From Candidatus Giovannonibacteria bacterium RIFCSPHIGHO2_01_FULL_45_24 (GTDB taxonomy: Bacteria > Patescibacteriota > Minisyncoccia > UBA11713 > 2-01-FULL-45-33): a stretch of 64,000 nucleotides of DNA. The translations under genes were made by a program, and so were the position numbers. The stretch is from NCBI GenBank assembly GCA_001778495.1, contig MFHE01000002.1, positions 17,995 through 81,994 of the forward strand. The letters are read 5' to 3'. Positions 1,263 through 56,128 of the stretch are shown piece by piece. Position 1 is the first letter of the stretch. Each line of letters starts with the position of its first letter. The notes beneath the pieces were generated by a model. That model did not search any database. It saw only the letters and a program-made list of their open reading frames with translations, and had not been told where the DNA came from.

Positions 1263-1916
1263 ATGTCAAAGAGAAATATTGTAGTAGTCGCGGTTCTCGC
1301 GGCAGCCGCTCTAGGAACGGCAGGCTTTTTTATTTGGAGGAATATTAACTCGCCCGGGGGAATGCCTCGCTCCTCAACATCCGATGTTGAATCTCCAAAA
1401 ACATCGGATGTTTTCCCGCGAGACGTCAAAGAGAGCGATGAGCTTGAAACGTTAGCCAGGCAAGCTTTGGCCAGAAAAATCCCCTCCGGGAACGAGGCGG
1501 CGACAAAAGAATTAAAAGATATGTCTTTGCAGCTGGAGCGCGAGCCGAATTATCTTCAAGGATGGCTGCAGGTTGGGATTTTGCGCAAGTTTTTGGGCGA
1601 TTACGACGGCGCGTCTTTGGCTTGGCAGTACGCGTCTTTGATCCGCCCCCAAGAATATATCGCTTTTTCTAATCTCGGCGATCTTTACCATTATTACCTG
1701 AAGGATTTCCCCAAAGCCGAGAAATACCTGCGAAGGGCCGTGGATGTAAAACCGGATTATGTCGCCGGATACAAAAATTTATTTGACCTTTACACGCTCT
1801 CTTATAAGGAAAAGAAAAATTTAGCTGAATCTGTTTTGCTTGAAGGCATCAAAAAAAATCCAGGAGATAATTATCTGCAGGGGATTCTTACTTCTTATCG
1901 CGCGGGGGATCTTTAG
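1263..1916 (+). CDS. membrane-anchored TPR-repeat protein
   Basis: N-terminal TM helix (VVVAVLAAAALGTAGFFIW). C-terminal TPR-like repeats (GDYDGASLAWQYASLIRP, LGDLYHYYLKDFPKAEKYLRRAVDVKPDY). Confidence 0.7.
   Translation: MSKRNIVVVAVLAAAALGTAGFFIWRNINSPGGMPRSSTSDVESPKTSDVFPRDVKESDELETLARQALARKIPSGNEAATKELKDMSLQLEREPNYLQGWLQVGILRKFLGDYDGASLAWQYASLIRPQEYIAFSNLGDLYHYYLKDFPKAEKYLRRAVDVKPDYVAGYKNLFDLYTLSYKEKKNLAESVLLEGIKKNPGDNYLQGILTSYRAGDL
1371..1418 (+). repeat. 48-bp double-hairpin element, copy A, in frame in the TPR gene
   Basis: TCAACAT-CCG-ATGTTGA (1374-1390) plus AAAACAT-CGG-ATGTTTT (1398-1414). 46/48 nt identical to 53360-53407. Confidence 0.9.
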
Positions 1917-22446: not shown

Positions 22447-23211
22447 TTATATTTCCTGATATAAATTTTTAATTGTTAATAGCTCCTGATATTTTTCCGG
22501 ATGCGCGAGCCAATCTAGTTTTTCCGGAGAATTTTTTAAATTCAAAATCGGATATTGCGCGCCATTCTTAATCCCCAGTTCCGGAACATCCTTTAACTTT
22601 AGTTTTTTAAGTTCGGGAACGGATTTGTAATTTGGATTTTTTTCAAATTCTATCGCCTCGCCGGCCTGCCTCGCCGTCAGCCTCGTCGAGTCTAGACGGG
22701 AGTCAAGGCGGGCATCTATGACATAATAGCATCCTCCGCGCAGTTTTTTTATCGTCTCGTAATCGTATTCAACAAGACTCACCCAGTTCGCCAGAACTAA
22801 ATCTTTTTCCCCAACATTGACGGCTAGGTGGCCGAAGTTCGGCGGCGTTACGATTTTGTCGCCGGTCATCGCTTCAATAATGTAGGCCTCTTTAATATCG
22901 GCTGGATTATTTTCATATCTTTGAATCAGAAAATAAGCATATCCCTCCAAAACTTCGTAAAGGTCGGACTGCGGTCCGCGGTGGTAATGGCCGAAAGTCT
23001 TGGCGAATTCACCGCCAATTTTTTGCTGCGGTATTTCCGTAATGTCGTATCTGGCTTTTCCACCGACGATTTCAAGGTTTCTATAAACTTCGTAGAAAAC
23101 GCCGTTTTTCCCGACCGCCTCCGGATTTCTAAACACCGGCTTCATGTCAAAAACCATGCGTTTGGAAACATCGGGACTTCTCGCGCTATTTAATAAATAT
23201 TTTCCAGACAT
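22447..23211 (-). CDS. cupin-type glucose-6-phosphate isomerase (archaeal-type PGI)
   Basis: TFGHYH...YEVLEG...PPNFGHLAVNVG matches the cupin PGI metal-site pattern as I recall it from Pyrococcus PGI. Carries a 17-codon repeat insertion. Confidence 0.6.
   Translation of the reverse strand: MSGKYLLNSARSPDVSKRMVFDMKPVFRNPEAVGKNGVFYEVYRNLEIVGGKARYDITEIPQQKIGGEFAKTFGHYHRGPQSDLYEVLEGYAYFLIQRYENNPADIKEAYIIEAMTGDKIVTPPNFGHLAVNVGEKDLVLANWVSLVEYDYETIKKLRGGCYYVIDARLDSRLDSTRLTARQAGEAIEFEKNPNYKSVPELKKLKLKDVPELGIKNGAQYPILNLKNSPEKLDWLAHPEKYQELLTIKNLYQEI
22663..22713 (-). repeat. 51-bp imperfect-palindrome element, in frame in PGI
   Basis: Its reverse complement is 50/51 identical to 37642-37692. Encodes [17 protein letters not shown]. 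Confidence 0.95.
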
Positions 23212-25031: not shown

Positions 25032-26315
25032 CTATGTCAACAAGCGCTTTCTGTGTAATTTTCTATAATGCGAAATCGCGAAGCGGTGGGCTTCGGAGTC
25101 CAGCATTAAAATAAAATTTTTGAGCGGTTCGGGGAGGCGCGGAAGGGGGACGGGAGACGTTTTACCATTTATAAAAATATGGTCACCAATATGTTTTTTG
25201 TTTTTGGTGAGAGCGATTATTTTACTTGGCGGTTTAACCGCCAAGGCCGCGCTAAGCTGTGCCCTGCCGCCGTCAACAATAATCACTTGCGGGTAAGGCC
25301 ATTCTTTATGTCTTAGTCGTCTGAAAATAATTTCGCGGAGCATCGCCGGGTCGTTTGAGGTTTTAATACTTCTGATTTTAAACAGCCGATAGCAATTTTT
25401 TTGAATTTTGCCGTCAGCGAAAACGGCCATAGAGCCGTAGGCGAATTGGCCATGAATATTGGCGATGTCGTAGGACTCTATTCTATTTATTGCGGGAATA
25501 TCCAAAATTGATTCCAAGGCCCTGCTGGCCTTGGCGAATTCGGTCGGAAGGTCCTGTTTAATTACTCCCCTGTGTTCAAAGATTTTTTCCAGCGCGCGGA
25601 TTTGGTCGCGGATTTTGCCGGCCTCTTCGTATTTTCTGGCGTCGGAGAGTTCGCGCATTTCTTTTTTGAGCGCGCGGGCAAGAGTTTTATTGTTGCCGGA
25701 GAGTATTTGCTTGATTGCGCGGATGTTTTTTTGGTATTTCCCCAGCGCAGAAAGATCCTGCTCTAAAAGCAGGGCTTTCTGCGCTACGCAACAATAGCCC
25801 AAACATCTCCCAATGCGCGCATTAAGGCACGGCCGCCTGTGAGGTTTTTTGCATGTGCAGTAGGGAAAAGCGCGGCGCAAGGTCTTGAGCGCCGAGCGTA
25901 AAACCCCGCCTTCAGTGAAGGGGCCGATGTAGTCGGCTTCGCGGTTTTTCTGATGCGTGATAAATATCTTTGAAAAATTTTCTTTAGAGAACCCGACATA
26001 AAAATACTGCTTATCGTCGCGCATCAGCACGTTGTATTTCGGCAGGTGTTTTTTAATGAGCCCCGCTTCGCGGATTAAGGCCTCGGTTTCGGAGTTTAAA
26101 ACCTCCCAATCCAATATTTTGGCTTTTTTTAGCAAGGCAATCAACTTGGCGGTTAAACCGCCAAGTGGCGGTTTAACCGCTTTTCCGAAATATGACCTGA
26201 TCCGCGCGCGCAGATTCGCCGCCTTTCCTATATATAGAATCTCCCCACTTTTGTTTCGGAAAAAATAAATCCCGGGCGCATTTGGCGCTTTTTTAAAGTC
26301 CTTTTTGGTGAGCAT
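25032..26315 (-). CDS. uvrC: excinuclease ABC subunit C (short form; I could not find a C-terminal (HhH)2 domain)
   Basis: GIY-YIG N-terminus (GIYFFRNKSGEILYIGKAANLRARIRSYF), a Cys cluster, a UVR domain and an RNase H-like domain. 427 aa. Confidence 0.9.
   Translation of the reverse strand: MLTKKDFKKAPNAPGIYFFRNKSGEILYIGKAANLRARIRSYFGKAVKPPLGGLTAKLIALLKKAKILDWEVLNSETEALIREAGLIKKHLPKYNVLMRDDKQYFYVGFSKENFSKIFITHQKNREADYIGPFTEGGVLRSALKTLRRAFPYCTCKKPHRRPCLNARIGRCLGYCCVAQKALLLEQDLSALGKYQKNIRAIKQILSGNNKTLARALKKEMRELSDARKYEEAGKIRDQIRALEKIFEHRGVIKQDLPTEFAKASRALESILDIPAINRIESYDIANIHGQFAYGSMAVFADGKIQKNCYRLFKIRSIKTSNDPAMLREIIFRRLRHKEWPYPQVIIVDGGRAQLSAALAVKPPSKIIALTKNKKHIGDHIFINGKTSPVPLPRLPEPLKNFILMLDSEAHRFAISHYRKLHRKRLLT
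25225..25245. repeat. REP-2-like palindrome, in frame in uvrC
   Basis: CTTGGCGGT-TTA-ACCGCCAAG. Confidence 0.8.
26145..26180. repeat. REP-2-like palindrome plus overlapping inverted half-copy, in frame in uvrC
   Basis: CTTGGCGGT-TAA-ACCGCCAAG followed by TGGCGGT-TTA-ACCGC. Confidence 0.8.
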
Positions 26316-26959: not shown

Positions 26960-29776
26960 ATGGAAGCGAAAGAGGACGGCAAAAATTTTATAAGGATTAA
27001 GGGAGCCAGGGCGCATAACCTGAAAAATATTGATTTGGATATTCCAAAAAATAAATTGGTGGTAATCACCGGCATCTCCGGTTCGGGAAAATCTTCTCTG
27101 GCTTTTGACACCGTCTACGCCGAGGCGGAGCGGAGGTTCGTTGAATCGCTTTCTTCTTACGCCCGGCAATTTTTAGGCGTGAAGGAAAAGCCAGATGTTG
27201 AATCAATTTCCGGCCTTTCGCCGGCCATCGCCATTGACCAGAAAAGCGTCACAAAAAATCCGCGCTCAACCGTGGGGACGATTACGGAGATTTATGATTA
27301 TTTAAGAATACTTTTTGCGCGCGCCGGAAGCCCGCATTGCTCAAAATGCGGCAAAAAAATAGGCAAGCAGAGCGCGGATGAAATTTTGAAGCACATTTTT
27401 AAATTGAAAAATAGTTCGCAGATAAATATTTTGGCGCCCGTGGTCAGGGGCAAAAAGGGCGAGCACAAAAGCGTTTTGGAAATGGTGCGCCGCGTAGGAT
27501 TTTTGCGGGTGCGCATTGACGGCGAAATTATGCGCTTGGACGAAGCCGAAGATAAATCTTTAGACCCGAAAAAAGCGCACAATGTCGAAGTCGTAGTGGA
27601 CAGGTTAATCATTGACAAGGAATTGGATAGGCCAAGATTAAGAGAATCGTTGGAGACTGCGCTGAAGATAGGGAAAGGGCTGGTGTTGATAAACGAGGCC
27701 ATTTTTTCCGAGCATTTTGCCTGCCCGGATTGCGGGATTTCGCTTCCGGAAATTGAGCCGCGGCTTTTTTCTTTCAATTCTCCCTATGGCGCCTGCCCGC
27801 ATTGCACCGGCTTGGGAAGCACTTTAGAAGTTGAGCCGGATTTAGTTATCCCGAATAAAAATCTGACTTTGGCGGAGGGCGCTATCCGCCCGTGGGCAAC
27901 TGCGTCTCACAAAGTCGGCAGGCAGTCATGGTATTGGTGGATTTTGTCGGACTTGGCGGAGAGGCATAAATTTTCTCTTAACACGCCATTCGGGAAGCTC
28001 CAGCCGAATATTCAAAAAATTGTTTTAAATGGAGATCCCTCTACAAGCTCGGGACAAGTTTTCGAAGGAGTAATCGAAAACTTGAAGCGCCGGTGGAAGG
28101 AAACGGAATCGGAATGGACGCGGGAGGAAATTGAAAAATATATGCGAGTGGAAGTTTGCCCGGTTTGCAAGGGCAGGCGGCTTAAGCCGGAAGCGCTGGC
28201 TGTGACTTACGCTGACAAAAATATTTCCGAGATTTCGGCGTTGACTATTGAAGAGGCAAAGAACTTTTTTACCCCGTCGCTTTCCTCAACGCCGCCCGCA
28301 GGTTTCTTCCCGCCGGGCGGCGCTTTGCGTCCGCTTCTTAAAGAAATTTCGCGCAGGCTGGAATTTCTACTGGAGGTCGGCTTGGATTATCTGACCATAG
28401 ACCGCGAATCCACCACGTTGGCAGGTGGCGAGGCGCAGAGAGTGCGGCTTGCCACCCAAATCGGTTCGTCTCTCACGGGAGTTGTTTATGTTTTGGACGA
28501 GCCCTCAATTGGGCTTCACGCCCGCGACCACGCGCGGCTGATTAAAACATTAAAAAATCTTCGTGATTTGGGGAATACGATTTTAGTTGTGGAGCACGAC
28601 GCTGAAACAATGAAAGAGGCCGATTGGATAATTGATTTGGGCCCTGGCGCGGGCAAGCACGGCGGGAAAGTTATTTTTGAAGGAGAGTACCGCGAGCTAT
28701 TGAAAGCAAAAACTTTGACAGGAGAATATTTGAGCGGGAAGAAAGAAGTTACTTCTATGCGTGTCCTTGCAAAGCCTGCGGCAAAGACCGAGCTTTTCAT
28801 ACGAGGCGCTTCCGAGCATAATCTGAAAAACATTGACGTGAAAATTCCTTTGTGCAAGATGGTTGTGGTTTCCGGCGTCTCCGGCTCCGGAAAATCCTCA
28901 CTTATCTCCGATATTTTAGCGCGCGCGCTTCTTAAATATTTTTACGGCTCAAAAGAAGAGCCAGGCAAACATAAAAAAATTGAGGGATTGGAACATATTG
29001 ATAAGGCGGTTTTAGTTGACCAGTCGCCCATAGGCCGCACGCCGCGCTCAAACCCCGCGACTTACACTGGAGTGTTTTCATTTATGCGCGAAATCTACGC
29101 GCGCACTGTGGAGGCGCGTGCGAGGGGATACAAATCCGGCCGGTTTTCATTCAACGTAAAAGGCGGAAGGTGCGAGGTTTGCGAAGGGCAGGGAGTGAAA
29201 AAAATAGAAATGTATTTTTTGCCGGACATTTACGCGGAGTGCGAGGAGTGCCACGGAAAAAGATACAGTAAAGAAGCGCTTGAGATTTTATACCAGAATA
29301 AAAACATCGCCGATGTTCTGGATTTCTCCATTGAAGAAGCGCATAAATTTTTCAAAGACATTCCGCAGATTGAGCAGCGCTTGAAAACCTTGGTAGACGT
29401 CGGGTTGGGATATATGAAGCTTGGCCAGCCCGCGACGACGCTTTCGGGAGGCGAAGCGCAGAGAGTGAAGCTCGCGTTTGAACTTTCTAAAAAAGCGACG
29501 GGCAGGACCCTTTATATTTTAGATGAACCAACAACCGGCCTCCATTTTGACGATATTCAAAAATTATTAAATATTCTCCGCGCCTTGGTGGACAAGGGCA
29601 ACAGCGTCGTGGTGATTGAGCATAATATGGACGTCTTAAAAAACGCCGATTGGATAATTGACCTCGGTCCGGACGGAGGAGGCAACGGCGGCGAAATTAT
29701 CGCCGAAGGCGCGCCCAAAGAAATCGCGGCGCACAAAAAATCATACACCGGGGCGTGGTTAAGGAAGGTTATTTAG
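26960..29776 (+). CDS. uvrA: excinuclease ABC subunit A
   Basis: Two ABC ATPase modules ([18 protein letters not shown]), zinc-finger cysteines and LSGGEAQR signatures. Confidence 0.98.
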
Positions 29777-30598: not shown

Positions 30599-30625
30599 TT
30601 AGCACTCGGAGGTCAGGAGTGCTAA
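30599..30625 (+). promoter_or_regulatory. CIRCE operator (HrcA binding site)
   Basis: TTAGCACTC-N9-GAGTGCTAA is an exact match to the CIRCE consensus, placed at the predicted TSS. Confidence 0.9.
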
Positions 30626-30666: not shown

Positions 30667-30972
30667 ATGCTTATGAACATAAAACCATTGGGCGACAGGG
30701 TTTTGATTGAGCCGCTTTCTGATGAGGAAAAGGCAAAGCAGTCAAAGGGCGGGATTTTAATACCGGACACCGCGGACAAGGAAAAGCCGCAGGAAGGGAA
30801 GATTATTGCTGTGGGAGAAGGGAAAAGAATGGAGAACGGAACATTGCAGCCGCTTTCCGTGAAAGCCGGAGACAGAGTTTTATTTTCCAAATACGGGCCG
30901 ACGGAGATAAAAATTGACGACAAAGAATATTTAATAGCGAAGGAGGAGGATATTTTAGGAATAATTGAATAA
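30667..30972 (+). CDS. groES: co-chaperonin GroES
   Basis: [13 protein letters not shown]...GGILIPD. Start is ATG 30667 or 30673. Confidence 0.95.
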
Positions 30973-30973
30973 C

Positions 30974-32647
30974 ATGGCAAAACAAATTTTATTTAATGAA
31001 TCGGCGCGAAGCGCCATCAAAAAGGGCATAGACAAGCTGGCGGAAGCTGTGCGGATGACTTTGGGCCCGCGGGGCCGGGCGGTGGTTATTGAAAAAGGAT
31101 ATGGCGCCCCGCAGGTGACTTTTGACGGCGTGACCGTGGCCAAAGAAATTGAACTTTCGGACAAATGGGAAAATTTGGGCGCGGAGTTTATCAAGCAGGC
31201 AGCCGACAAAACCAACGACCGCGTGGGCGACGGAACGACCACGGCGGTTGTTTTGGCGCACGCGATTATTGAAGAAGGCGAGCGGGCGATTCATGAAAAG
31301 GGCTTTAACGTAATCCAGCTCGCTGAGGAACTTAGAAAAGGGAGCGAGGCGGTGGTGAAGGAATTGGAGCAGCAAAAAGAAGACGTTTCCGACAATAAAA
31401 AATTGCAGGAGGTGGCGACGCTTGCGGCGAAAGACGCCGAGATAGGGAAACTTCTTGCAGAAGTGATGTCCAAAGTCGGGAGGGACGGCGTTGTGACGAT
31501 TGAGGATTCCAACACCGTCGGCAGTTCGCATGAAATGGTTGAAGGTCTGCAGTTTGACCGCGGCTACGTCTCTCCTTACATGATTTCAAATCAGGAGAAG
31601 ATGGCGGCGGAGCTGGAGGACCCTTATATTTTGGTGACCGACAAAAAAATATCGTCCATTCAGGATATTTTGAAATTGTTGGAAAAAATCTTGGCGACGG
31701 GCAAAAAAGAGCTGGTTTTGATCGCCGATGAAATTGAGGGCGAGGCGCTGGCAGCCCTTTTGGTTAACAAACTCCGAGGCGTGCTTAATGTTTTAGGAGT
31801 AAAAGCGCCAGGCTTCGGCGACAGGAGAAAAGAGATGCTGCAGGATATCGCCGTTGTGACCGGCGCGGAATTTATCTCCGAGGACTTGGGAAGAAAGCCG
31901 GAAAACACGGAGGTGAGCCATTTAGGCCACGCGCACAGAGTCGTCGCCGATAAGGACAATACCACAATTGTTGGCGGAAAGGGAGACAAAAAAGCGATTG
32001 AGGAAAGGGTTGCCCAAATCCGCGCGCAAATCAAAAAGACGGACTCGGAATACGAAAAGAAAAATTTGCAGGAGCGTGTGGGCAAGCTCTCCGGCGGGGT
32101 TGCGGTAATCAAAGTCGGCGCTCCGACCGAATCCGCACAAAAAGAATTAAAACAAAGAGTGGAAGATGCTGTGGCCGCAACCCGCGCCGCGATGGAGGAA
32201 GGAATTGTCCCCGGCGGAGGCATCGCGCTTTTTAATTTGGTTGTTTCGGCTCAAGGAGAAATTATTGAGCATGCCGTTTCTGCTACCCTGGCCGCTACTG
32301 GAATTTTGAATAAAGCGCTAAGAGCACCCGTAGAAGCCATCATTCAAAATAGCGGAGAATCCGTAAATAAAATTATTGATGAATTGGTAAAGCAAAAAAA
32401 GGCAAACAAGGGAGAGAATAACAAAGCGCAATGGCTGGGGTTTAACGCCGTAACCAATAAAATCGGCGACCTCAAAGAAGCCGGCATCATTGACCCGCTT
32501 AAGGTCGTAAAAACCGCTTTTGCGAACGCCGTTTCCGTCGCCGCGAACTATCTTACCGTCGGCGCGGCCGTCACCGAAATTCCGGAGAAAAACCCATCAA
32601 CAAGCTCGGGGCAGGGAGGCATGGGCGGCGGCCATATGGACTATTGA
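30974..32647 (+). CDS. groEL: chaperonin GroEL
   Basis: MAKQILFNE...DGTTTA...C-terminal GGMGGG tail. The track TTG at 30965 is the alternative start. Confidence 0.98.
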   Translation: MAKQILFNESARSAIKKGIDKLAEAVRMTLGPRGRAVVIEKGYGAPQVTFDGVTVAKEIELSDKWENLGAEFIKQAADKTNDRVGDGTTTAVVLAHAIIEEGERAIHEKGFNVIQLAEELRKGSEAVVKELEQQKEDVSDNKKLQEVATLAAKDAEIGKLLAEVMSKVGRDGVVTIEDSNTVGSSHEMVEGLQFDRGYVSPYMISNQEKMAAELEDPYILVTDKKISSIQDILKLLEKILATGKKELVLIADEIEGEALAALLVNKLRGVLNVLGVKAPGFGDRRKEMLQDIAVVTGAEFISEDLGRKPENTEVSHLGHAHRVVADKDNTTIVGGKGDKKAIEERVAQIRAQIKKTDSEYEKKNLQERVGKLSGGVAVIKVGAPTESAQKELKQRVEDAVAATRAAMEEGIVPGGGIALFNLVVSAQGEIIEHAVSATLAATGILNKALRAPVEAIIQNSGESVNKIIDELVKQKKANKGENNKAQWLGFNAVTNKIGDLKEAGIIDPLKVVKTAFANAVSVAANYLTVGAAVTEIPEKNPSTSSGQGGMGGGHMDY

Positions 32648-35944: not shown

Positions 35945-37603
35945 ATGCCCTCTCAAATTGAAGAAATAAAAAGCCGCGTAAATGTCGTGGATTTGGTGGG
36001 CTCGTATGTCCGGCTTGCCAAAGCCGGCGCCAATTTCAGGGCGCTTTGCCCGTTCCACAGCGAGCGGACGCCGTCTTTTAACGTTTCTCCGGCCAGGCAG
36101 ATCTGGCATTGCTTCGGCTGCGGCAAGGGCGGGGACATTTTTGAATTTATCCAGCAGATTGAAGGGGTGGAGTTCGCGGACGCTCTGCGGACTTTGGCCG
36201 ACCGCGCCGGAGTGGAGCTCAAGCACGAAGACCCGCGATTTCGCACGGAGCGCGCGCGGCAGTTCGCGCTTCTGGAAGAAGCCGCGAAATTTTTTGAATC
36301 TAACTTAGCAATCGGATTGCTAAGTCCACTTAGCAATCCGATTGCTAAGTATCTTCATGCGCGTGGCCTGACTGATGACACCATCCGCGAATTCCGCTTG
36401 GGTTACGCGCAGGATGAATGGCGCTCTCTCTCCGCTCATTTAAAAAACAAGGATTTTTCCGCGGCGGAGATAGAAAAATCGGGGCTTGTTGTCAAAAATC
36501 AGCGCGATTTTTACGACCGCTTTCGCGGGCGGATAATGTTCCCGATTTTTGATTACAACGGCAGGGTAGCAGCTTTCGGCGGGAGAATTTTTCCGGAAAA
36601 AGATAACGAGTCAAAATATGTAAATTCGCCGGAAACTATTCTTTACCAAAAAAGCAAAACTTTGTATGCGCTCAACAAATCAAAAACGGAAATTATGCGC
36701 CAAAAAGAGTGCGTTGTGGTTGAGGGCTATATGGATGCGATTATGTCCTGGCAGGGCGGGGTAAAAAATGTCGCGGCATCTTCCGGAACGGCTTTCACTG
36801 AAGACCAGCTAAAGACAATCAAACGGCTTGCCGATAGGATGATTTTCTCTTTTGACGCCGACTCGGCCGGCGAGTCGGCGTCAAAACGCGGCATTGCTTT
36901 GGCCTTGGAGCGCGGATTTGAGGTGAGAGTGGCCGGAGGGTTGGGCGTTAAGGACCCGGCCGAAGCAGTCGCGAAAAATCCGGAGATTTGGCAAAAAGCC
37001 GTTTCCGCTTCGCGCCATATTGTTGAATTTTATCTGGATTCGGCCGTGAAAAAATTCCACCCTGCCTCCCCGGAAGCCAAACGTGAAATTCAAAAAACGG
37101 TTTTGCCGGTGGTTGCGTCCTTGGGCGAGCTTGAGCGCGCGCATTGGGCGAGGGAATTGAGCAATATTTTAAATATAAAAGAAGAAGCCGTCTGGGCGGC
37201 TTTGAAAAAAGCGAATACCGCCCTTTCACAGGAAGGAGAAAATGTTTTCGGAGATGAGCAAGGATCCGCGCGCAATAATAACAGAAAATCATTGCTTGAG
37301 GGCAGGATTTTAGCCATCGCCGCGGAATATCCGGCGCTTTCCCAAAAACTTGACCCGGCCTTTCAAAATCTGCTCGCCCAGAGCAACAAAACAGCCATCT
37401 TCGCGGAAATTTTACTCAACAATCTCGCTGACGCCGAAGTGGAATTCATAAAATGCCAGCGGGAGCTTAAAAAAGAGTATTTAAAAGAGCGTCTGGTTGC
37501 GCTTTCCGGAGAGATAAGCGGCGCGGAGCGCAAAGGCGCGGGAAATCTAAAAACGCTCCTGGGGGAATTTCATAAAATTTCCAAAGAATTAAATCAAATA
37601 TGA
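35945..37603 (+). CDS. dnaG: DNA primase
   Basis: Zn ribbon [30 protein letters not shown] and [14 protein letters not shown]...DADSAG. Confidence 0.95.
36304..36349. repeat. REPIN-like doublet, in frame in dnaG
   Basis: CTTAGCAAT-CGG-ATTGCTAAG, tcca, CTTAGCAAT-CCG-ATTGCTAAG. Confidence 0.95.
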
Positions 37604-38856
37604 CGAAAAAGGAAAAGAAAAAAAGTAAGCCGAAAAAATCGGCCCGCCTTGACTCCCGTCTAGACTTGACGAGGCTGACGGCGAGGCAGGCCAAGAGGAT
37701 TAAAGCGCTCGCAAAAAAGCCCAAACGCGCGCCGTCGGGGTTAAGCAAGGCGGAGCTGAAAAAAGAATTCAGCGAGGAAAGGGTTGAGGCGCTCTTTAAA
37801 AAAGGCAAAGAACGCGGTTTTTTGACTTACGCGGAGATTCTTTCGGCTTTCCCGCACGTTGAGTACAATGTGATTTTTTTGGAAGACCTTTATTCTCGGC
37901 TGGAGGTGGCTGGCGTGGACGTGCTTGAAGGGATGGAGCTTTTGGAAGTTCCCATAGAAAAAAAAGCGGAAGGAAAACCGGGGCGCAAGAAATCGCGCCA
38001 AAGCGTTTTGGCCACCGAAGACATCCCCGCCGCCGACTCTGTGCAGATGTATTTGAAAGAAATCGGGCGCATACCCTTGATTTCGGGCGAAGAGGAAAAA
38101 GAGCTCGCTAAAAAAATTGAAGCCGGCGAGGAGGACGCCAAGAACCAGCTGGCGCAGGCAAATCTGCGGCTGGTGGTTTCCATCGCCAAAAAATACGTTG
38201 GGCGGACGCCGAACCTCACCATGCTGGATTTGATTCAGGAGGGGAATCTGGGGCTTTTCAGAGCCGTGGAGAAATTTGACTGGCGGAAGGGCTATAAGTT
38301 CTCAACCTACGCCACCTGGTGGATAAGGCAGGCGGTTACCCGCGCGATTGCCGACCAAGGGAAAACCATCCGCATACCAGTGCACATGGTTGAAACTATC
38401 TCAAAATATCAGCAGGTGAGACGGCGCCTTACGCAGGATTTGGGCCGGGAGCCGCTGGCGGAGGAATTGGCGGCCGAGATGAATGTTGAGGTGGAAAAAA
38501 TTCACCATATCCAAAAAATTTCGCAGGACACGGTTTCTTTGGAGGCGCCGGTAGGGGAAGACGACGAGGATTCAACGCTTGGCGACTTTCTTCCGGACGA
38601 AAAAATGCTCACGCCAGCGCAGGAGGCGGCGCGGAAACTGCTTAAAGACCACCTTCGGGAAATTATGGTTGACCTTATGCCCCGGGAGCAGAAGATTTTG
38701 CGCATGCGCTTCGGCTTGGACGACGGCATCACCCACACCTTGGAGGAAGTCGGGAAAGAATTCGGCGTGACCCGCGAGCGAATCCGCCAGATTGAAGCGA
38801 AAGCGATAGAAAAAATCCGCCAGCACCACAAAGTCATAAAATTGCATGAGTATTAA
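37600..38856 (+). CDS. rpoD: RNA polymerase sigma factor RpoD/SigA
   Basis: Region 2 ([14 protein letters not shown]) and region 4.2 ([20 protein letters not shown]). Confidence 0.95.
37642..37692 (+). repeat. 51-bp imperfect-palindrome element, in frame in the rpoD N-terminus
   Basis: GCCCGCCTTGACTCCCGTCTAGACTTGACGAGGCTGACGGCGAGGCAGGCC. Encodes [17 protein letters not shown]. Confidence 0.95.
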
Positions 38857-42025: not shown

Positions 42026-42728
42026 AAACGGGAGAATAGTTTTATCGCCGTCCGCCCTCAATCTTTTTTTGGAGTGCGCGAAATGCTTTTGGCTGGAAAA
42101 AAATCGCGGGATCCACCGGCCCTCGGGCGCCTTTCCGTCTTTGCCGGGGGGAATGGACGCTGTGCTCAAAAAATATTTTGACAAGTTTCGCGCGCAAGGC
42201 ACACTCCCGCCGGAGATTGAGGGAAAAGTAGAAGGTAAGCTTTTAGACGACCCGAGATTTTTGCGCGAGTGGCGGCTCAATATGAAAGGAATCAGATGGC
42301 GCGACGAAAAATTGGACGCGGAGCTGATGGGCGCTTTAGATGACTGCTTGGTTTCTAATAATTCTTACATCCCCGTTGATTATAAAACTAGAGGCTGGGC
42401 GGCGAAAGATGATTCACATTCTTATTATGTGAACCAATTAAATTGCTACACATTTTTGCTGCAAAAAAACGGATACAAAACTAAAAATTTCGCTTACTTG
42501 CTTTTTTATTCGCCTGAAGAGGTTTTGGACTTGGACGCCGGACGTCCAAGCGGACGTCCGGCGTCCTTAGTCGCATTCAACGTTGAGCCGCGCAAGGTTG
42601 AAGTGGAACCCGAAGCCGCCTACAAAGTTTTCAAATCTGCCGTCCAGCTTTTGCGCGGCCCCAAGCCCGCTTCGCACAGCGACTGCAAGTTTTGCAGCTG
42701 GGGAAACAATTTCTTGACTTTTGAATAA
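42012..42728 (+). CDS. PD-(D/E)XK (Cas4/RecB-like) nuclease family protein
   Basis: N-terminal SPSALNLFLECAKCFW, core IPVDYKT, C-terminal CKFCSW cysteines. The track start at 41862 is rejected because it overlaps the MFS gene. Confidence 0.65.
   Translation: MVKDKNGRIVLSPSALNLFLECAKCFWLEKNRGIHRPSGAFPSLPGGMDAVLKKYFDKFRAQGTLPPEIEGKVEGKLLDDPRFLREWRLNMKGIRWRDEKLDAELMGALDDCLVSNNSYIPVDYKTRGWAAKDDSHSYYVNQLNCYTFLLQKNGYKTKNFAYLLFYSPEEVLDLDAGRPSGRPASLVAFNVEPRKVEVEPEAAYKVFKSAVQLLRGPKPASHSDCKFCSWGNNFLTFE
42530..42566. repeat. REP-2-like double hairpin, in frame in the nuclease gene
   Basis: GGACGCCGGACGTCC-aagc-GGACGTCCGGCGTCC (15-bp arms). The first half reads CTTGGACG-ccgga-CGTCCAAG. Confidence 0.9.
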
Positions 42729-44507: not shown

Positions 44508-45648
44508 ACTGACATTCGGCCGCCACAACGCGACTTTCGCGGTGCTTGGGGTGGCGCTTGTGGCGACGGCATCGTGGTCTTTCGTGAAAACTTACGGGGC
44601 GGGAGACGGGGGCGCGTTTCAGACGACTCCGGCTGTCATTTCCGAACCCGAAAAGCCAAAACACATAAAAACCCCTGAACCGGTGAAGGCGATTTATATG
44701 ACCAGCTGGGTTGCCGGCACGAAAGATTGGCGTAGAGAACTGGTTGAGTTCGTTAAAAAATCCGAAATCAATAGCATTGTCATTGACGTAAAAGATTACA
44801 CTGGCAGAGTTTCTTTTAACACAGGGAATCAGAAAGTAAAAGAATTCGGTTCGGAGGAAATGCGCGTGGGAGACATGAAAGATTTTATTGAAACGCTACA
44901 CGACGCCGGCATCTACGCCATTGCCCGCATTGCCGTGTTTCAGGACCCGTTTTACGCAAAAAAACATCCGGAGATCGCCGTGCAGAAAAAAAATGGAGCG
45001 GTATGGAAAGACAAAAAGGGGCTTTCATATCTAGACCCGGGCGCGCGCGAATTTTGGGACTATATAATAGAAGTCGCCAAAGCGTCGGAGGCAGCCGGGT
45101 TTGACGAGCTGAATTTTGACTATATCCGCTATCCATCGGACGGCAATATGTCCGACATAATGTTTCCGGTATCAGGCAAAAGAAATAAAGTTGAAGTCAT
45201 GTCAGAATTTTTTGCCTATTTAAGTAATGCGCTAAGCGATCTGCCAGTCCCAATCTCTGCGGATGTTTTCGGAATGGTTGCCACCAATCCCGACGATTTG
45301 AACATCGGGCAGGTTTTGGAAAGCATCGCCCCGCATTTTGATTATGTTTCTCCAATGGTTTATCCGTCGCACTACCCGCCGGGATTTCAAAATTATAAAA
45401 ATCCCGCGGCGCATCCTTACGAGGTAGTGCGTTTTTCAATGAACAAGGCGGTGGAACGACTTTCAGCGCCGACTTCAACTCCTTCCAAACTCCGCCCTTG
45501 GATTCAGGATTTTGATTTGGGAGCAAATTACGATGCCTCGAAAGTCCGTGCGCAGATTCAGGCGGTTTACGACTCCGGCCTTACGTCTTGGATGAGCTGG
45601 GATGCCGGGAATAAATACACAAGGGATGCTTACACCTCTGATCCTTGA
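44482..45648 (+). CDS. putative glycoside-hydrolase-like TIM-barrel protein (DUF4015-like)
   Basis: N-terminal anchor, then VKAIYMTSWVAG...INSIVIDVKDYTG...DELNFDYIRYP pattern. Confidence 0.55.
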   Translation: MKRQKYFHKLTFGRHNATFAVLGVALVATASWSFVKTYGAGDGGAFQTTPAVISEPEKPKHIKTPEPVKAIYMTSWVAGTKDWRRELVEFVKKSEINSIVIDVKDYTGRVSFNTGNQKVKEFGSEEMRVGDMKDFIETLHDAGIYAIARIAVFQDPFYAKKHPEIAVQKKNGAVWKDKKGLSYLDPGAREFWDYIIEVAKASEAAGFDELNFDYIRYPSDGNMSDIMFPVSGKRNKVEVMSEFFAYLSNALSDLPVPISADVFGMVATNPDDLNIGQVLESIAPHFDYVSPMVYPSHYPPGFQNYKNPAAHPYEVVRFSMNKAVERLSAPTSTPSKLRPWIQDFDLGANYDASKVRAQIQAVYDSGLTSWMSWDAGNKYTRDAYTSDP

Positions 45649-46372
45649 CCCAAATCCGATTTAGGGCAATCATATAATAATCATAGCATTGATATATGCG
45701 AAAAAACCCTTTTATCACTGGCAGTTTTTATCATGTTTACGCGCACACAATAAGTGATTTAGCGCTTTTTCGTAACGAGTGGGACTATAAAAGATTTTTA
45801 TGCACGTTTTTCGCTGCTAATGGAGATGGCGCTGTTCTTCGTTTGGATCGCCAGAATGACCTAAATCCGATTTGGGGCATACGGGATGGGACAGTAGATA
45901 TCGGAAAGCCGCTTGTAGATATAGTTTGTTTTTGTCTCATGAACACCCATTTCCACTTGCTTTTGGGAGAGCGTGGAGATGGAAATATTTCTAAATTTAT
46001 GCAAAAGCTTATGATCAGCTATGCCAAATATCTAAATCTAAAGTACGAACGCCGAGGGCACGTGTTTGAAAGCAGATTTCATTCCAAGCTTTTGGATGAT
46101 AATGAATATTTTTTGCGGGCTTCGTGCTATATTCACTTGAATCCAAAAGATGCACGCGGATGGAAAAATATTGAGTATAAATATCCTTGGTCAAGCTACC
46201 AAGACTACCTCGGCGATTCTCGCTGGGGCAGACTTTTGAAAGACGAGACTATACTTTCACAATTTAAAACCAAACTGGCGTATAGGGAATTTGTGAGAGA
46301 AGCGCGCCCGGAATTATCCGATTATGCAGAGCATGTTGTTTTTCTAAACTGACCCAAATCGGATTTGGGGCA
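45646..46372 (+). mobile_element. RAYT-1 unit: Y1/HUH transposase gene bracketed by 23-nt REP-1 hairpin copies
   Basis: TGACCCAAATC(C/G)GATTT(A/G)GGGCA at 45646-45668 and 46350-46372. A third copy lies at 45857-45879 inside the ORF. Confidence 0.75.
45696..46352 (+). CDS. REP-associated tyrosine transposase-like protein (IS200/Y1_Tnp family)
   Basis: FYHVY..., HUH motif in CLMNTHFHLLL, C-terminal Tyr motif ASCYIHLNP. Confidence 0.8.
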   Translation: MRKNPFITGSFYHVYAHTISDLALFRNEWDYKRFLCTFFAANGDGAVLRLDRQNDLNPIWGIRDGTVDIGKPLVDIVCFCLMNTHFHLLLGERGDGNISKFMQKLMISYAKYLNLKYERRGHVFESRFHSKLLDDNEYFLRASCYIHLNPKDARGWKNIEYKYPWSSYQDYLGDSRWGRLLKDETILSQFKTKLAYREFVREARPELSDYAEHVVFLN

Positions 46373-47563: not shown

Positions 47564-49915
47564 ATGAAGTTTTTAGCCAAGCCGCTTTTAGCTTTTGCTT
47601 TTCTCTTTCTTTTTGCCGCGCCCGCCTTTGCCGGCCCCAACGATAATCTCTCCGGCGGGGCATGGGCCGATAATATCGGCGCGATCAGTTTTAATTCCAC
47701 AAATCATGATGGCGACGTAGATTACGGCGTTAGCGTTGATCAAGCTGGAAATCTCTCCGGAGAAGCATGGTCCGACAATGCAGGATGGATAAGTTTTAAC
47801 GCAGGGGACGTTGCGGGGTGTCCGCAGGACCCGCCGGCGGTTCCGTGCGCGCCGAAATTGAATCGCGAAACGGGAGTTGTTTCCGGTTGGGCAAGGGCTT
47901 ATCGCGCCATAGAGCCGGAAGGTCAGACACTCGGCGGCTGGGATGGATGGATTCATCTTAGGGGAAAGGTCCAAAGCGATAATTCAGATTTTGGTGTTTT
48001 GGCAAGCGGCTGTGATTGGGGCGGGCTTGCCTGGGGCGGCACTGATTATAGTCTGGGTTTTACCGGCTGGGTTCAATTTGACGCCGAAGGCACCGGCTTT
48101 GCCTGCGTTGAAGTTGTTCAACCCGGACTGCGCGTCGTTCCACATTCCGCCGATCTTGAAGTCGGAGGGCAAATGCCTTTCCAAGCTCTTTACGACCCGG
48201 ATGGTTCCAGCCCACAGCCGGAAACAGACGTTACTGAATCGGCTTCCTGGTCTTCTTCAGGCCCCGCAGTAGCCGTCGTAACAAATATTTCTCCCAAGGG
48301 CATAGTAACGGGTGTATCGCCCGGGGATGCCAATATCACCGCGACTTATCTCGGAACAAACGACTCGGCTTTGGTTAATGTTACTCAATCACCGCCATCT
48401 GTTCCCAAATGCGAACCAACTTCTCAATCAGGGAAAGTCGGCGATCCATTCGGTTTCACCGCCAAGGACGGCTCATCTCCATACAGCTGGTCCGCTCCTT
48501 CGGGGACTCCATCTTCCGGCGCGGGATCTTCTTTCATCACAAGATACTCTTCCCCCGGCAACTACGTTGTTACTCTCACTGACTCCGCAAGTAGGTCCGA
48601 CACTTGCTCCGTGAGCGCAGAGAGGGTTGAGGACCCTGAAAACCGCGTTCCGGTTGCCGAAGCCGGCATTTCAACGGACGGCTCAACTTACTCAAGCAAA
48701 ATCATTGTTACAAAAGGGGTCCCGACCAGAATTTACTTTTCTGCCGATGAAGATGTAACCGGAGATGGAGCCGCGAGCCGCGACCCGGACGGCTGGACTC
48801 ACCCGACTCTGGGAGTTTCCAACGGAGGAAGTTGCGCGTGGAACGCCGACCTCAATCAAGGAACTCCGACTTTTGAAAAAACTTTTGGCAGTCCGCCATC
48901 GCCGTCCGGCTGCAATTTCAATCAAGAATACACTTTTAACGATGACCTTGAGGGGCAGCAATCCAAAACCTTCACTTACGAGGTGCTTAAAATCACAGAC
49001 GCAAGAGGGGCGGTTTCAAACATAGGATTCGTGCAAGTGGAGGTGAGAGCCGAGGGCGGATTTACCTGCAACTCATTGAAGCAGTGCGTCTTTGGCGGCG
49101 GGGGAGAAAGTTGTAGGATTACTCCGGAGTGCGAAAGCGTTATTGTAGACCCGCCTGTCTGCACAAGCAACTGCGGAGGAGGCGGAGGAGGCGGAGGAGG
49201 CTGCACTGATCCGGTAACATGCCCTGTTGTTACAGATCCCAACGCTTTAGAGCTTGGCTCCGACACCAGTTTTTTCTGCCCGTCTCATCAGGTTGAACTT
49301 AAATGGAATTACTCCGATCCAAACGGCGACCAGCAAGCGTCTTTTAGATTACAGGTTGATAACAATTCAGATTTTTCATCAATGATTGTTGACGTTTACC
49401 AAGACTCTTCAAATAAACTTTTTATTGTCCCGCCGAATGTGCTTTCTTTCAGCACAACGTATTATTTCAGAGTCGCGGTAAAAGATTCAACCGGCGCGTG
49501 GTCAAACTGGTCTTCTTCCGCCAATTTCACGACGCCGGCAAGTTGTCCTCCGGCGGCGAGCTTTAAACTCCGCAGAACGAAAGACATCTCTGTGAATGTC
49601 ACTGGCGTAGGCGCTGGAACAAGCGATTCAACGACGATTTGGGTTGAGAAGATCGGAGCGTTTTCCGGCACGGTAATACTCGTTCCGCAATCCATCTCGC
49701 CGAATATTCCCGGCGCGTCTTTCAGTTTCGCAACCGCTTCGCTGGATCAAGATCATTATTCGTCCGGTTTTAGCTTCAAGGTCACGGTTCCGGGGTCTAC
49801 CGCGCCTGGCAATTACACTATTAAAATTAAAGGGACGAGCGGCGGCGTGCCGGACGCTTTTGTTGACGTCCTGCTTAGAGTAAATTTTACCAGCCCGGAT
49901 TTTAGGGAAATATAA
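47564..49915 (+). CDS. large secreted multi-domain surface protein (module 1, gene c)
   Basis: Signal peptide MKFLAKPLLAFAFLFLFAAPAFA. Repeated G.AW...GWISFN motifs, a Big_2-like segment and many Cys pairs. The C-terminal domain is shared with 52021-53265. Confidence 0.75.
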   Translation: MKFLAKPLLAFAFLFLFAAPAFAGPNDNLSGGAWADNIGAISFNSTNHDGDVDYGVSVDQAGNLSGEAWSDNAGWISFNAGDVAGCPQDPPAVPCAPKLNRETGVVSGWARAYRAIEPEGQTLGGWDGWIHLRGKVQSDNSDFGVLASGCDWGGLAWGGTDYSLGFTGWVQFDAEGTGFACVEVVQPGLRVVPHSADLEVGGQMPFQALYDPDGSSPQPETDVTESASWSSSGPAVAVVTNISPKGIVTGVSPGDANITATYLGTNDSALVNVTQSPPSVPKCEPTSQSGKVGDPFGFTAKDGSSPYSWSAPSGTPSSGAGSSFITRYSSPGNYVVTLTDSASRSDTCSVSAERVEDPENRVPVAEAGISTDGSTYSSKIIVTKGVPTRIYFSADEDVTGDGAASRDPDGWTHPTLGVSNGGSCAWNADLNQGTPTFEKTFGSPPSPSGCNFNQEYTFNDDLEGQQSKTFTYEVLKITDARGAVSNIGFVQVEVRAEGGFTCNSLKQCVFGGGGESCRITPECESVIVDPPVCTSNCGGGGGGGGGCTDPVTCPVVTDPNALELGSDTSFFCPSHQVELKWNYSDPNGDQQASFRLQVDNNSDFSSMIVDVYQDSSNKLFIVPPNVLSFSTTYYFRVAVKDSTGAWSNWSSSANFTTPASCPPAASFKLRRTKDISVNVTGVGAGTSDSTTIWVEKIGAFSGTVILVPQSISPNIPGASFSFATASLDQDHYSSGFSFKVTVPGSTAPGNYTIKIKGTSGGVPDAFVDVLLRVNFTSPDFREI
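49175..49201 (+). repeat. tandem (GGAGGAGGC)x3 encoding Gly9 between two Cys codons
   Basis: A perfect 9-nt unit repeated three times, in frame. Confidence 0.9.
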
Positions 49916-51937: not shown

Positions 51938-51956
51938 ATTATTAATCCTTAGGAAG

Positions 51957-51977
51957 TTAGGAAGTCCGACTTCCTAA
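51957..51977. repeat. intergenic REP-like hairpin
   Basis: TTAGGAAGT-CCG-ACTTCCTAA, preceded by a partial duplication of the left arm. Confidence 0.8.
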
Positions 51978-53266: not shown

Positions 53267-53950
53267 ATGGATCAAAAATTTTTAATTCCGTCTTCTATTA
53301 TTTTGGCTGGTGTAGTAATTGCCTTGGCGGTTTTGTATAGCAAAATCCCGTCCGCGCCCTCCTCAACATCCGATGTTAAATCTGCAAAAACATCGGATGT
53401 TTTCCCGGGCGCGGAAGCTCTACGTATCCGCCGAGACGATTTTGTTTTGGGAAGTCCCGCCGCGAAAGTCGCCATTATTGAATATGGAGATTTTCAGTGC
53501 CCGTTTTGCGGAAGATTTTTTCAAACTACCGAAAAGGAGATTATAGAAAAGTACGTGAAGACCGGCAAAGCCGCGTTTTTGTGGCGCGACTTCGCGTTTT
53601 TGGGAGAAGAGTCTTTCCGCGCCGCCGAGGCGGCGCGTTGCGCCGGAGAGCAGGGGAAGTTTTGGGAATATCACGACTATCTTTTTAATGGTCAGCGGGG
53701 GGAAAATGAGGGCGCGTTTTCCGACCAAAATTTGAAACGTTTCGCGAAAGAGCTGAAACTGGACGAATCTAAATTTAATTCCTGTTTTGATTCCGGAAAA
53801 TACAGAAAAGCGGTTGAGGAAACGTCAAATACGGGGAGAGCGGTTGGGGTGAACGGCACCCCGGCCACTTTCGTAAACGGGCAGTTAATTTCCGGAGCGC
53901 AGCCGTTTGCCGTGTTTCAGAAAATTATAGATGAAGAGCTCAAAAAATAA
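53267..53950 (+). CDS. DsbA-family thiol:disulfide oxidoreductase (membrane-anchored)
   Basis: Thioredoxin-fold CPFC active site and an N-terminal TM segment. Confidence 0.85.
   Translation: MDQKFLIPSSIILAGVVIALAVLYSKIPSAPSSTSDVKSAKTSDVFPGAEALRIRRDDFVLGSPAAKVAIIEYGDFQCPFCGRFFQTTEKEIIEKYVKTGKAAFLWRDFAFLGEESFRAAEAARCAGEQGKFWEYHDYLFNGQRGENEGAFSDQNLKRFAKELKLDESKFNSCFDSGKYRKAVEETSNTGRAVGVNGTPATFVNGQLISGAQPFAVFQKIIDEELKK
53360..53407 (+). repeat. 48-bp double-hairpin element, copy B, in frame in the DsbA-like gene
   Basis: 46/48 identical to 1371-1418. Encodes SSTSDVKSAKTSDVFP. Confidence 0.9.
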
Positions 53951-55420: not shown

Positions 55421-56128
55421 CACTTGGCTGTCCGACAGCCAAGTGTTATATTTTATTTATGAGAAAAACTCGTTTTGGTAACGGAGAATTTTATCATATT
55501 TATAATCGCGGTACCGATAAGCGTCGGGTATTTTTAGACCAAGAAGATTTTAAGCGTTTTTTGCAGAGCATGAACGAATTTAACAGCCAAATACCTATCG
55601 GCAGTTTATTTGAGAACTCTTTTAGGGGCGAAACTAAACTTGGCAGTCGGACTGTTAAGTTGGTTGATATCGTTTGCTATTGTCTTAATCCTAACCACTA
55701 TCATTTAATGCTTCGTCAGCGCATTGAAAATGGAGTTAGTGAGTTTATGAAACGATTGAGTGGTGGTTATACTCAATATTTCAATATTAAATATAAAAGA
55801 AGCGGCGTGCTTTTTCAAGGTAAATTTAAGGCGACGCACATAGATTCTAATGAATATCTTTTACATGCCAGCGCATATGTTAATTTGAATAACCGCGTTC
55901 ATCATATTAATGACAGATCATCACGATCAAGTTGGGGAGAATGTCTCGATGACAATAGCGGTATGTGCGCTAAAGATATTATATTGAAGCAATTTAAGAA
56001 GCCCGTCGAGTATAAAGAATTTGCTGAAAGTTCGCTAAGAGATATTTTAGAGCGGAAACAACTGCATAAAGAACTGGAAAAAATATTACTAGAAAATTAG
56101 CCACTTAGCTGTCGGACAGCTAAGTGGC
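55421..56128 (+). mobile_element. RAYT-2 unit: Y1/HUH transposase gene bracketed by REP-2 hairpins
   Basis: CACTTGGCTGT-CCG-ACAGCCAAGTG (55421-55445) and CCACTTAGCTGT-CGG-ACAGCTAAGTGG (56101-56127). Internal copy at 55638-55660. Confidence 0.8.
55459..56100 (+). CDS. REP-associated tyrosine transposase-like protein (IS200/Y1_Tnp family)
   Basis: FYHIYNRG..., HUH motif in CLNPNHYHLML, Tyr motif ASAYVNLN. TGtTATATT ends 7 nt before the ATG. Confidence 0.8.
   Translation: MRKTRFGNGEFYHIYNRGTDKRRVFLDQEDFKRFLQSMNEFNSQIPIGSLFENSFRGETKLGSRTVKLVDIVCYCLNPNHYHLMLRQRIENGVSEFMKRLSGGYTQYFNIKYKRSGVLFQGKFKATHIDSNEYLLHASAYVNLNNRVHHINDRSSRSSWGECLDDNSGMCAKDIILKQFKKPVEYKEFAESSLRDILERKQLHKELEKILLEN

Follow-up and report, generated by a model that had tools for sequence, protein, structure and literature searches.

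A 47-nt hairpin element read in one frame within unrelated genes of Candidatus Giovannonibacteria and other Patescibacteria

Two unrelated genes of Candidatus Giovannonibacteria share an in-frame element

The stretch of DNA analysed here, referred to as the window in the rest of the text, comprises 64,000 nt of contig MFHE01000002.1 (positions 17,995 to 81,994 of the forward strand) and comes from a Candidatus Giovannonibacteria genome from Rifle groundwater, ~94% of which is coding. Two of its open reading frames (ORFs), which code for otherwise unrelated proteins with an N-terminal transmembrane (TM) helix, one with weak TPR matches and the other of the DsbA family, carry copies of the same short palindromic element. 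As the initial annotation of the window had reported from the sequence, positions 1371-1418 and 53360-53407 are identical at 46 of 48 nt, and ORF translation confirmed that both copies are read in the same frame as SSTSDV(E/K)S(P/A)KTSDVFP. The shared block amounts to 49 nt (1370-1418 and 53359-53407, 47/49 identical), beyond which the flanks cannot be aligned, and the two substitutions separating the copies are both non-synonymous (E/K and P/A). ORF 53267-53950 codes for a TM helix followed by a Thioredoxin_4/DSBA domain (E=4.5e-39). The N-termini of both host proteins are conserved in homologues, indicating that the region of the element is truly coding, and the distance from the TM helix to the element, annotated as 8-12 residues, was found to be 12 residues in the TPR protein and 8 in the DsbA-like protein.

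The 13-mer AACATCCGATGTT and its complement are confined to these two copies within the 64 kb, where they yield 8 strand-matches with at most one mismatch compared to 0.08 expected from shuffled sequences. Together with the 30 unique copies found elsewhere (see below), this count rules out chance similarity. An assembly artefact is likewise ruled out, as the exact host protein occurs on 23 contigs from several sample collections and an identical DsbA copy is present in an independent ENA assembly. Protein P0121 is 100% identical to the TPR host protein. The shared element is real and far above chance. A role as DNA-uptake sequence was dropped given only two sites in ~83 kb, always as a structured doublet within genes; the template or variable repeat of a diversity-generating retroelement, an intron and an intein were dropped because the element is short, shows no adenine-specific variation and is read through in frame in homologues.

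Table 1. Coordinates in the window of the element, its host genes and the Y1 genes with their palindromes.
Feature	Coordinates	Strand	Description
Copy 1, full hairpin	1366..1422	+	Outer stem CTCGC (1366-1370)/GCGAG (1418-1422)
Copy 1, internal loop	1371-1375 / 1413-1417	+	TCCTC / TTCCC
Copy 1, arms and loop	1376-1412	+	Arm 1 AACATCCGATGTT (1376-1388); loop GAATCTCCAAA (1389-1399); arm 2 AACATCGGATGTT (1400-1412)
Copy 2, full hairpin	53351..53415	+	Outer stem TCCGCGCCC (53351-53359)/GGGCGCGGA (53407-53415)
Copy 2, inner parts, 5' half and loop	53360-53388	+	TCCTC (53360-53364); arm 1 (53365-53377); loop AAATCTGCAAA (53378-53388)
Copy 2, inner parts, 3' half	53389-53406	+	Arm 2 (53389-53401); TTCCC (53402-53406)
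Host gene 1	1263..1916	+	217-aa protein, N-terminal TM helix, weak TPR matches; element = residues 37-52 (SSTSDVESPKTSDVFP)
Host gene 2	53267..53950	+	227-aa membrane-anchored DsbA-family thioredoxin-fold protein; element = residues 32-47 (SSTSDVKSAKTSDVFP)
Y1 (IS200-like HUH) transposase gene 1	55459-56100	+	Context, not part of the element; region 55421..56128, REPtron-like layout
Gene 1, upstream palindrome	55421-55445		CACTTGG-CTGT-CCG-ACAG-CCAAGTG
Gene 1, internal related palindrome	about 55637-55661		In frame
Gene 1, downstream palindrome	56100-56128		GCCACTTAG-CTGT-CGG-ACAG-CTAAGTGGC
Y1-like gene 2	45696-46352	+	Context; region 45648..46369; phmmer 8.6e-32 to gene 1; no Pfam family at E<=1e-5
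Gene 2, upstream palindrome	about 45648-45666		AAAT-CSG-ATTT
Gene 2, internal palindrome	about 45859-45877		AAAT-CSG-ATTT
Gene 2, downstream palindrome	46353-46369		AAAT-CSG-ATTT

The element folds as a single bipartite hairpin

In both copies, the favoured fold is a single bipartite hairpin, in which a 13-bp stem (AACATCCGATGTT/AACATCGGATGTT) capped by an 11-nt loop is joined through a 5x5 internal loop (TCCTC/TTCCC) to an outer stem. The outer stems are locus-specific, differing between copies 1 and 2 and being self-complementary inside each. The energy of this fold is -27.6 kcal/mol for copy 1 and -38.0 kcal/mol for copy 2 (z = -7.0 and -8.5, respectively), and DNA folding parameters returned the same structure for both. 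Folding into two mini-hairpins reaches only -7.8 and -3.1 kcal/mol, so that two independent hairpins per copy are ruled out on energy.

The 47-nt core consists of TCCTC, a 13-nt arm, the 11-nt loop, the complementary arm and TTCCC. Each arm is in turn a 6+1+6 near-palindrome of the type NNNN-CSG-NNNN. Because the arms are exact reverse complements they form one 13-bp stem, and because they are near-palindromic they are also identical at 12 of 13 positions as direct repeats. The term double hairpin, under which the element was initially described, is therefore better replaced by that of a single bipartite hairpin, although the near-palindrome that it recognised in each arm is there. Terminator and promoter scans made no call on the element in either copy, and the Rfam models gave no match on it. 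Direct target-site duplication of the kind left by MITEs (miniature transposable elements with inverted repeats) is absent, the flanks being inverted complements.

Copies across Patescibacteria lie inside genes and are read in one frame

We scanned species-representative genomes for the pattern ACATCCGATGT-N8-20-ACATCGGATGT, which returned at least 118 loci, and pooled these with 35 further stretches from a stricter scan of metagenomes before de-duplication. The listed matches of the first scan belong overwhelmingly to Patescibacteria; besides these there is one conserved Kribbella locus, which is unrelated, and a small number of others. Among the matches listed in the pooled scans, the exact 47-nt architecture is found in 30 unique Patescibacteria copies, all inside ORFs and none extragenic. 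The longest covering ORF reads the TSDV frame in every one of them, 19 in the sense direction (SSTSDV....TSDVFP) and 11 in antisense (G[K/E]TSDV....TSDVEE). The frames reading HPM are free of stop codons in 26 of the 30 copies in sense and in 15 of the 30 in antisense. Over their first 10 positions, the outer flanks of the 30 copies show complementarity at 8.3 on average, compared to 4.5 of 10 in mismatched-flank controls. The innermost pairs are CGC/GCG or CCC/GGG in most cases, and 7 copies have a loop that is turned round with respect to the 5-mers.

Among the hosts of these copies are several small proteins, the very large surface proteins of loci L053 and L072, the Mur ligase of L047 and polynucleotide phosphorylase (PNPase), in which L016 and L073 carry the element at the same site. 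Along the protein, the copies lie between 0.15 and 0.98 of its length, and only some 6 of the 30 shortly follow an N-terminal TM helix. Given this spread of hosts and positions, the juxtamembrane placement of both window copies is put down to a tolerant linker and follows no general rule, and the preference for one topological position put forward in the initial annotation is not borne out. Its other proposal, spread at the DNA level into unrelated genes, is supported by the occurrence of the same core, always in one frame, in many unrelated proteins of Patescibacteria. Broader ACAT pairs, having other spacers and lacking the 5-mers, are less constrained: 41 of 120 lie outside any ORF of at least 100 aa and their frames are mixed, which confines the strict in-frame behaviour to the 47-nt architecture. 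Copy number amounts to 2 in ~83 kb of the source genome and to 2-3 in the examined fragments of several metagenome-assembled genomes (MAGs).

A lineage-restricted insertion in polynucleotide phosphorylase

The PNPase loop GIAMGL-LTDIQG measures 9-10 aa in 50 of 68 relatives and 30 aa in L016 and L073. The insertion of ~60 nt exceeds the 47-nt core, implying that the outer stem, or at any rate its inner part, comes with the element. On this ground, a pre-existing long palindrome as the source of the outer stem is partly rejected; short chance palindromes are possible targets. The arms of L016 and L073 agree at 26 of 26 positions while their PNPase flanks are 70-74% identical; the two loci have swapped 5-mers, and decay of the outer stem is seen in L016. 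Other low-complexity inserts of 7-17 aa occupy the same loop in relatives from the candidate phyla radiation (CPR; Patescibacteria), namely P0160, P0163, P0181, P0230 and P0240, and GIAMGL...LTDIQG may be a general hot spot for such inserts.

Orthologous sites carry other arm flavours and nested copies

Presence in all homologues of both families was the outcome that the initial annotation had held to speak against spread of the element. Most of the close (Giovannonibacteria-level) orthologues of both window proteins do carry the architecture at the same linker site, with other arms or orientations; more distant homologues and some close TPR homologues lack it, P0123, P0126 and P0133 being TPR homologues without any element. 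At the DsbA site, the corresponding peptides are SSTLGVESSKTPSVFP, GKTPGVFGDSTPGVEE, GEKPGFETAKKPGFEKA and GKTLGVESPKTPSVEE, besides the collapsed forms GKTPGVEE and GKTLE, and the closest relative has an unrelated hairpin. At the TPR site they are SSKPGFETSQKPGFFP, SSKSDFESVKKSDFFP, SSTLGV... and one antisense form. The DNA bears this out: in L119 the arms, AACACTCGGTGTT/AACACCGAGTGTT, have 3 changes each, every one compensated, while outer stem (GCGCCC/GGGCGC), loop and 5-mers have been retained.

The arms at the TPR site are ACAT-CSG-ATGT in the window, AAAC-CWG-GTTT in L157, AAGT-CSG-ACTT in L158 and ACAC-TCG-GTGT in L159. Across orthologues, both the DsbA and the TPR site preserve 5-mers and loop, whereas their arms alternate among these fully compensated flavours and between orientations. 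A search for the architecture with any stem revealed that such arm flavours are discrete and recur across genomes, and two flavours occur together on one contig in L131, L134, L141 and L052, suggesting that a landing site is used by different subfamilies and does not hold one drifting copy. In L122, L133, L135 and L141, the outer stem is an older single-arm element split exactly at its centre, which yields the peptides SSTS-R[core]R-DVFP or GKTS-P[core]G-DVEE with an inserted piece of 54 nt, or 18 codons. These nested copies suggest that an existing palindrome is entered at its tip or centre.

In L120 (10074-10120, CP066687.1), the same linker site of the DsbA orthologue is occupied by a different hairpin, CTCCCC-aaaaat-CCCCTCCTT-ggt-AAGGAGGGG-aaa-GGGGAG. 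Its peptide NPLLGKEGKGEV is common to several DsbA orthologues (P0013, P0016 and P0017 among them) and for this reason the hairpin probably represents another element family. In the window itself, an intergenic palindrome at 51949-51977 (TTAGGAAGTCCGACTTCCTAA) has the core GAAGT-CSG-ACTTC, which is the arm flavour of in-gene elements in L052 (at 1306) and L158.

Palindromes of the arm type bracket Y1 transposase genes

In the window, 24 odd palindromes have arms of 7 bp or more, compared to 3.7 in shuffled sequences; many of them are of the NNNN-CSG-NNNN type. Palindromes of this kind bracket two Y1 genes (Table 1). The product of ORF 55459-56100 scores 32.3 bits against Pfam Y1_Tnp (cut-off 23), which identifies it as a Y1 HUH protein. 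In its syntenic orthologue in L120, CAAC-CSG-GTTG is found at all three sites, upstream, internal and downstream, revealing a concerted change of flavour. Each Y1 gene has an in-frame palindrome ~170-190 nt into its coding sequence whose flavour is that of its flanking palindromes and co-varies between genomes (L120 12378-12402); a self-regulatory or internal processing site is a possible role for it. Elsewhere in the CPR, at L077, L095 and L003/L079, Y1 genes are flanked by palindromes with the identical ACATCSGATGT core, and the MAG from which L077 derives (CAZJJW01) contains dispersed ACAT doublets in genes besides its ACAT-flanked Y1 gene.

Other in-frame hairpins and repeats in the window

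At least 8 of the ~64 ORFs of the window contain some in-frame palindromic insert. A second shared in-frame element, unrelated to the one above, occupies 22663-22713 and 37642-37692 (51 nt, 98% identical, inverted on the chromosome). Its hosts, the genes for glucose-6-phosphate isomerase (ORF 22447-23211, minus strand) and the RpoD sigma-70 factor (ORF 37600-38856), both read it in the same sense, as ARLDSRLD(S/L)TRLTARQA, and it folds at -27.8 kcal/mol. The DnaG primase gene (ORF 35945-37603) carries a translated 48-nt doublet, ACTTAGCAATCGGATTGCTAAG-tcca-CTTAGCAATCCGATTGCTAAGT, at 36303-36350 (22-bp stem, -36.9 kcal/mol) and a second hairpin with a 16-bp stem at 36850-36886. Strong hairpins are also found in uvrC (ORF 25032-26315, minus strand) at 25225-25245 and 26144-26180, of the type ACTTGG-GCGGTT, and in uvrA (ORF 26960-29776) at 28055-28084 and 28290-28322, the latter of which looks like a degraded element of the same architecture.

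Outside genes, the gap that separates the ORFs at 42025 and 42809 holds the doublet GGACGCCGGACGTCC-aagc-GGACGTCCGGCGTCC (42533-42566), which has a 15-bp stem and reaches -39.9 kcal/mol when the flanks are included. The repeat TTAGCACTC-N9-GAGTGCTAA at 30599-30625, in the intergenic gap upstream of the GroEL gene (30965-32647), matches the consensus of the CIRCE/HrcA operator. The NLSG-AWS-NIGWISFN modules repeated in two large secreted proteins (47645-47803 and 52132-52290) and the collagen-like G-X-Y tract with internal repeats in ORF 50261-51937 are ordinary protein repeats with no relation to the hairpin element.

Relation to known palindromic elements

By definition, repetitive extragenic palindromic (REP) sequences and their REPIN doublets lie outside genes, and most of what is known of palindromic insertions in frame comes from Rickettsia and a small number of further genomes. 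In REPINs and BIME-like REP doublets with their RAYT and REPtron systems (PMC3116915, PMC3333891, PMC8266576), as in the element described here, two inverted palindromic units separated by a short spacer produce one longer hairpin. The two also have in common discrete subfamilies, Y1/HUH genes bracketed by palindromes of the same type and persistence at orthologous positions in related genomes. In contrast to REPs and REPINs, all 30 copies in Patescibacteria are intragenic and in frame, and they share no conserved GTAG or CGTC tag, the guide tetranucleotide at the foot of the hairpin as defined in PMC3733652; the flanking 5-mers that are conserved across copies are TCCTC/TTCCC. Unlike REPtrons, the Y1 genes of the window have an internal in-frame palindrome and number at least two in 64 kb; their clade falls below the curated RAYT score, and the host phylum is Patescibacteria. 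Full-text literature searches found no paper tying REP or RAYT to Patescibacteria and no earlier description of such an element in the CPR, and CPR lineages are not mentioned under the terms looked up in a phylogenomic study of Y1 proteins (PMC6006769).

The element also resembles the Rickettsia palindromic elements (RPEs; Ogata et al. 2000) and the intragenic GTAG/CGTC REPs (PMC3733652), palindromic repeats likewise inserted in frame into a wide range of unrelated and seemingly functional genes where the genome is small and gene-dense. Both in-frame RPEs and dimers of REPs within genes, the latter encoding 20-30 aa, have been documented with a bias toward replication and repair genes (PMC3733652), and in the window uvrA, uvrC and dnaG host other hairpins. 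Like RPEs, the Patescibacteria element is a palindromic repeat read in one frame in many unrelated genes. It differs from them in its orientation-symmetric core, which reads TSDV both ways, in its locus-specific outer stems, in some nested insertions and in a different Y1 clade. Neither the sequence, for which no alignment was made, nor the length shows an apparent relation to RPEs, RPE-1 measuring ~100-150 bp compared to 47-54 nt for the unit described here; given the much shorter unit and the host phylum, we do not claim membership among RPEs. With MITEs and with the miniature elements derived from IS200/IS605 (PATEs), the element shares its small size, its non-coding nature, its hairpin and presumed mobilisation in trans, in which a Y1 transposase would recognise a single-strand hairpin. 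MITEs, however, combine terminal inverted repeats with a direct target-site duplication, a combination that is absent here, where the flanks are inverted and the unit is much shorter (47-54 nt).

Origin and persistence of the element

We lean towards the explanation, which we consider reasonably likely, that this is a REPIN- or RPE-like non-autonomous palindromic element, probably mobilised by a Y1 enzyme, whose copies last only where they have been inserted in frame into tolerant protein loops, the genome being 94% coding. The two copies of the window would then be members of a short palindromic family of Patescibacteria comparable to REPINs and RPEs. The whole unit, in which a few GC-rich pairs on either side of the conserved core continue into the outer stem, forms a long hairpin in single-stranded DNA or RNA, and a Y1 (HUH, IS200/RAYT-like) enzyme would recognise the arms on single-stranded DNA and copy or move the unit, as suggested by the NNNN-CSG-NNNN type that the arms share with the palindromes bracketing Y1 genes. 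More tentatively, insertion may favour the centre of existing short palindromes, that is, hairpin tips, which would account for the self-complementary flanks, the nested copies and the re-use of sites by other flavours and orientations. The copies that persist would be stop-free, in-frame insertions in tolerant loops or linkers such as the juxtamembrane linkers of the window proteins. Because the core is symmetric, either orientation reads T-S-D-V...T-S-D-V, a hydrophilic 16-residue peptide, and selection could account for the exclusive frame.

Several observations weigh against this explanation. The other frames are often free of stop codons, so that stop codons alone leave the exclusive use of one frame unexplained, and 2 copies in ~83 kb is a low density for a REPIN population. 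Uninterrupted single-arm elements, the presumed targets of nested insertion, were searched for and none was present among the DNA stretches examined, and neither a precise empty site nor a recent presence/absence polymorphism was recovered. The Y1 protein encoded at 55459-56100 reaches 24.1 bits on the curated RAYT model NCBIfam NF047646, the cut-off of which is 80, and is not a curated RAYT equivalog. An ACAT-flanked Y1 gene was searched for in the window and across ~9-10 kb to each side of it and was not found, the flavours at the Y1 genes of the window being CTGT (gene 1) and AAAT (gene 2), other than the ACAT of the element. By a crude estimate, ACAT pairs would lie near Y1 genes by chance in a few of the at least 118 loci; what carries the argument for Y1 is therefore the recurrence of the 5'/internal/3' arrangement, along with an identity that is exact over 11 nt. 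From sequence comparison we infer mobility, the enzyme, the targeting of hairpin tips and the cause of the single frame, mobility in particular from the distribution of copies given that no empty site was recovered.

In the chief alternative, which we regard as rather unlikely, the hairpins would be inherited vertically and evolve in concert through processes driven by the palindromes themselves, without any transposase. Old linker hairpins would have had their complementarity and homogeneity maintained by intra-strand template switching (quasipalindrome correction) and short-patch gene conversion, with variants arising by slippage and inversion. The sharing of the architecture at the same site by most close orthologues of both window proteins agrees with such descent, as does the failure to find an empty-site polymorphism; the loops flipped in 7 of 30 copies, together with inversion of the whole core between orthologues, fit as well, and collapsed forms such as GKTPGVEE are consistent with slippage between arms that are 12/13 identical. 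Descent with homogenisation is harder to reconcile with flavours that are discrete and recur in distant genomes with no pattern of drift, or with the same core in many unrelated proteins, including a lineage-restricted insertion in PNPase. Template switching should also erase a non-complementary 5x5 internal loop, yet this loop is conserved, and the shared segments of 5-13 nt would be too short for ordinary homologous conversion. The presence of identical 11-nt cores at the flanks of Y1 genes likewise speaks against a history without transposase.

Selection for the structure or for the peptide offers two further explanations, both of which are unlikely given the range of hosts, positions, orientations and flavours. 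A functional mRNA or DNA structure, for example a translational pause after the TM helix that aids membrane targeting, or a processing or regulatory site, would explain why the fold is so stable (z about -7 to -8.5), why the element starts 8-12 codons past the TM helix in both window genes, why stem changes between orthologues are compensatory and why the PNPase arms are more conserved than the surrounding gene. We nevertheless hold it to be improbable, as a TM helix precedes only about 6 of the 30 copies and the same element, in one orientation or the other, sits at 15-98% of protein length in hosts that comprise surface proteins as well as the cytoplasmic enzymes PNPase and Mur ligase; some close TPR homologues do without it, the gene in L016 has been kept although the outer stem there has decayed, and neither Rfam nor the terminator and promoter scans recognised it. 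Even less probable, in our view, is selection for an S/T/D-rich linker motif (a glycosylation, protease or sorting signal) with DNA identity left by recent copying of a useful module. The single frame of all 30 copies, the hydrophilic, linker-like peptide and the extracytoplasmic location of both window hosts would be expected of such a motif. However, antisense copies differ at their ends (GK...EE versus SS...FP), other flavours substitute KPGF, KSDF or TLGV/TPSV for TSDV while keeping the base pairing, both differences between the window copies alter an amino acid, complementarity runs on into flanks that encode unrelated residues, and cytoplasmic enzymes are among the hosts.

A broader form of the Y1-based explanation, which we put forward tentatively and consider doubtful, is that of a phylum-wide system in which Y1/HUH enzymes place coding-compatible, orientation-symmetric hairpins into the tips of intragenic palindromes. 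Elements would grow by nesting "from the inside", landing pads would be re-used by arm subfamilies, and the family would consist of REPIN-like replicators that, in genomes almost devoid of intergenic DNA, have become obligately intragenic and steadily supply new loops and linkers to an appreciable fraction of proteins.

Implications

REP-like elements thus appear to extend across the large, mostly uncultured radiation of Patescibacteria, with every copy found within coding sequence and hosts that reach conserved enzymes, PNPase and a Mur ligase among them. Inserts of 16-18 residues of this kind can mislead annotation, alignment and structure prediction of CPR proteins. If the link to Y1 enzymes and the targeting of hairpin tips hold true, the family would offer a tractable pair of substrate and enzyme, an 11-13-nt arm and a small Y1 protein, would help to account for part of the odd insertions and low-complexity linkers in CPR proteins, and would reveal how selfish DNA can hold on where genomes are extremely compact.

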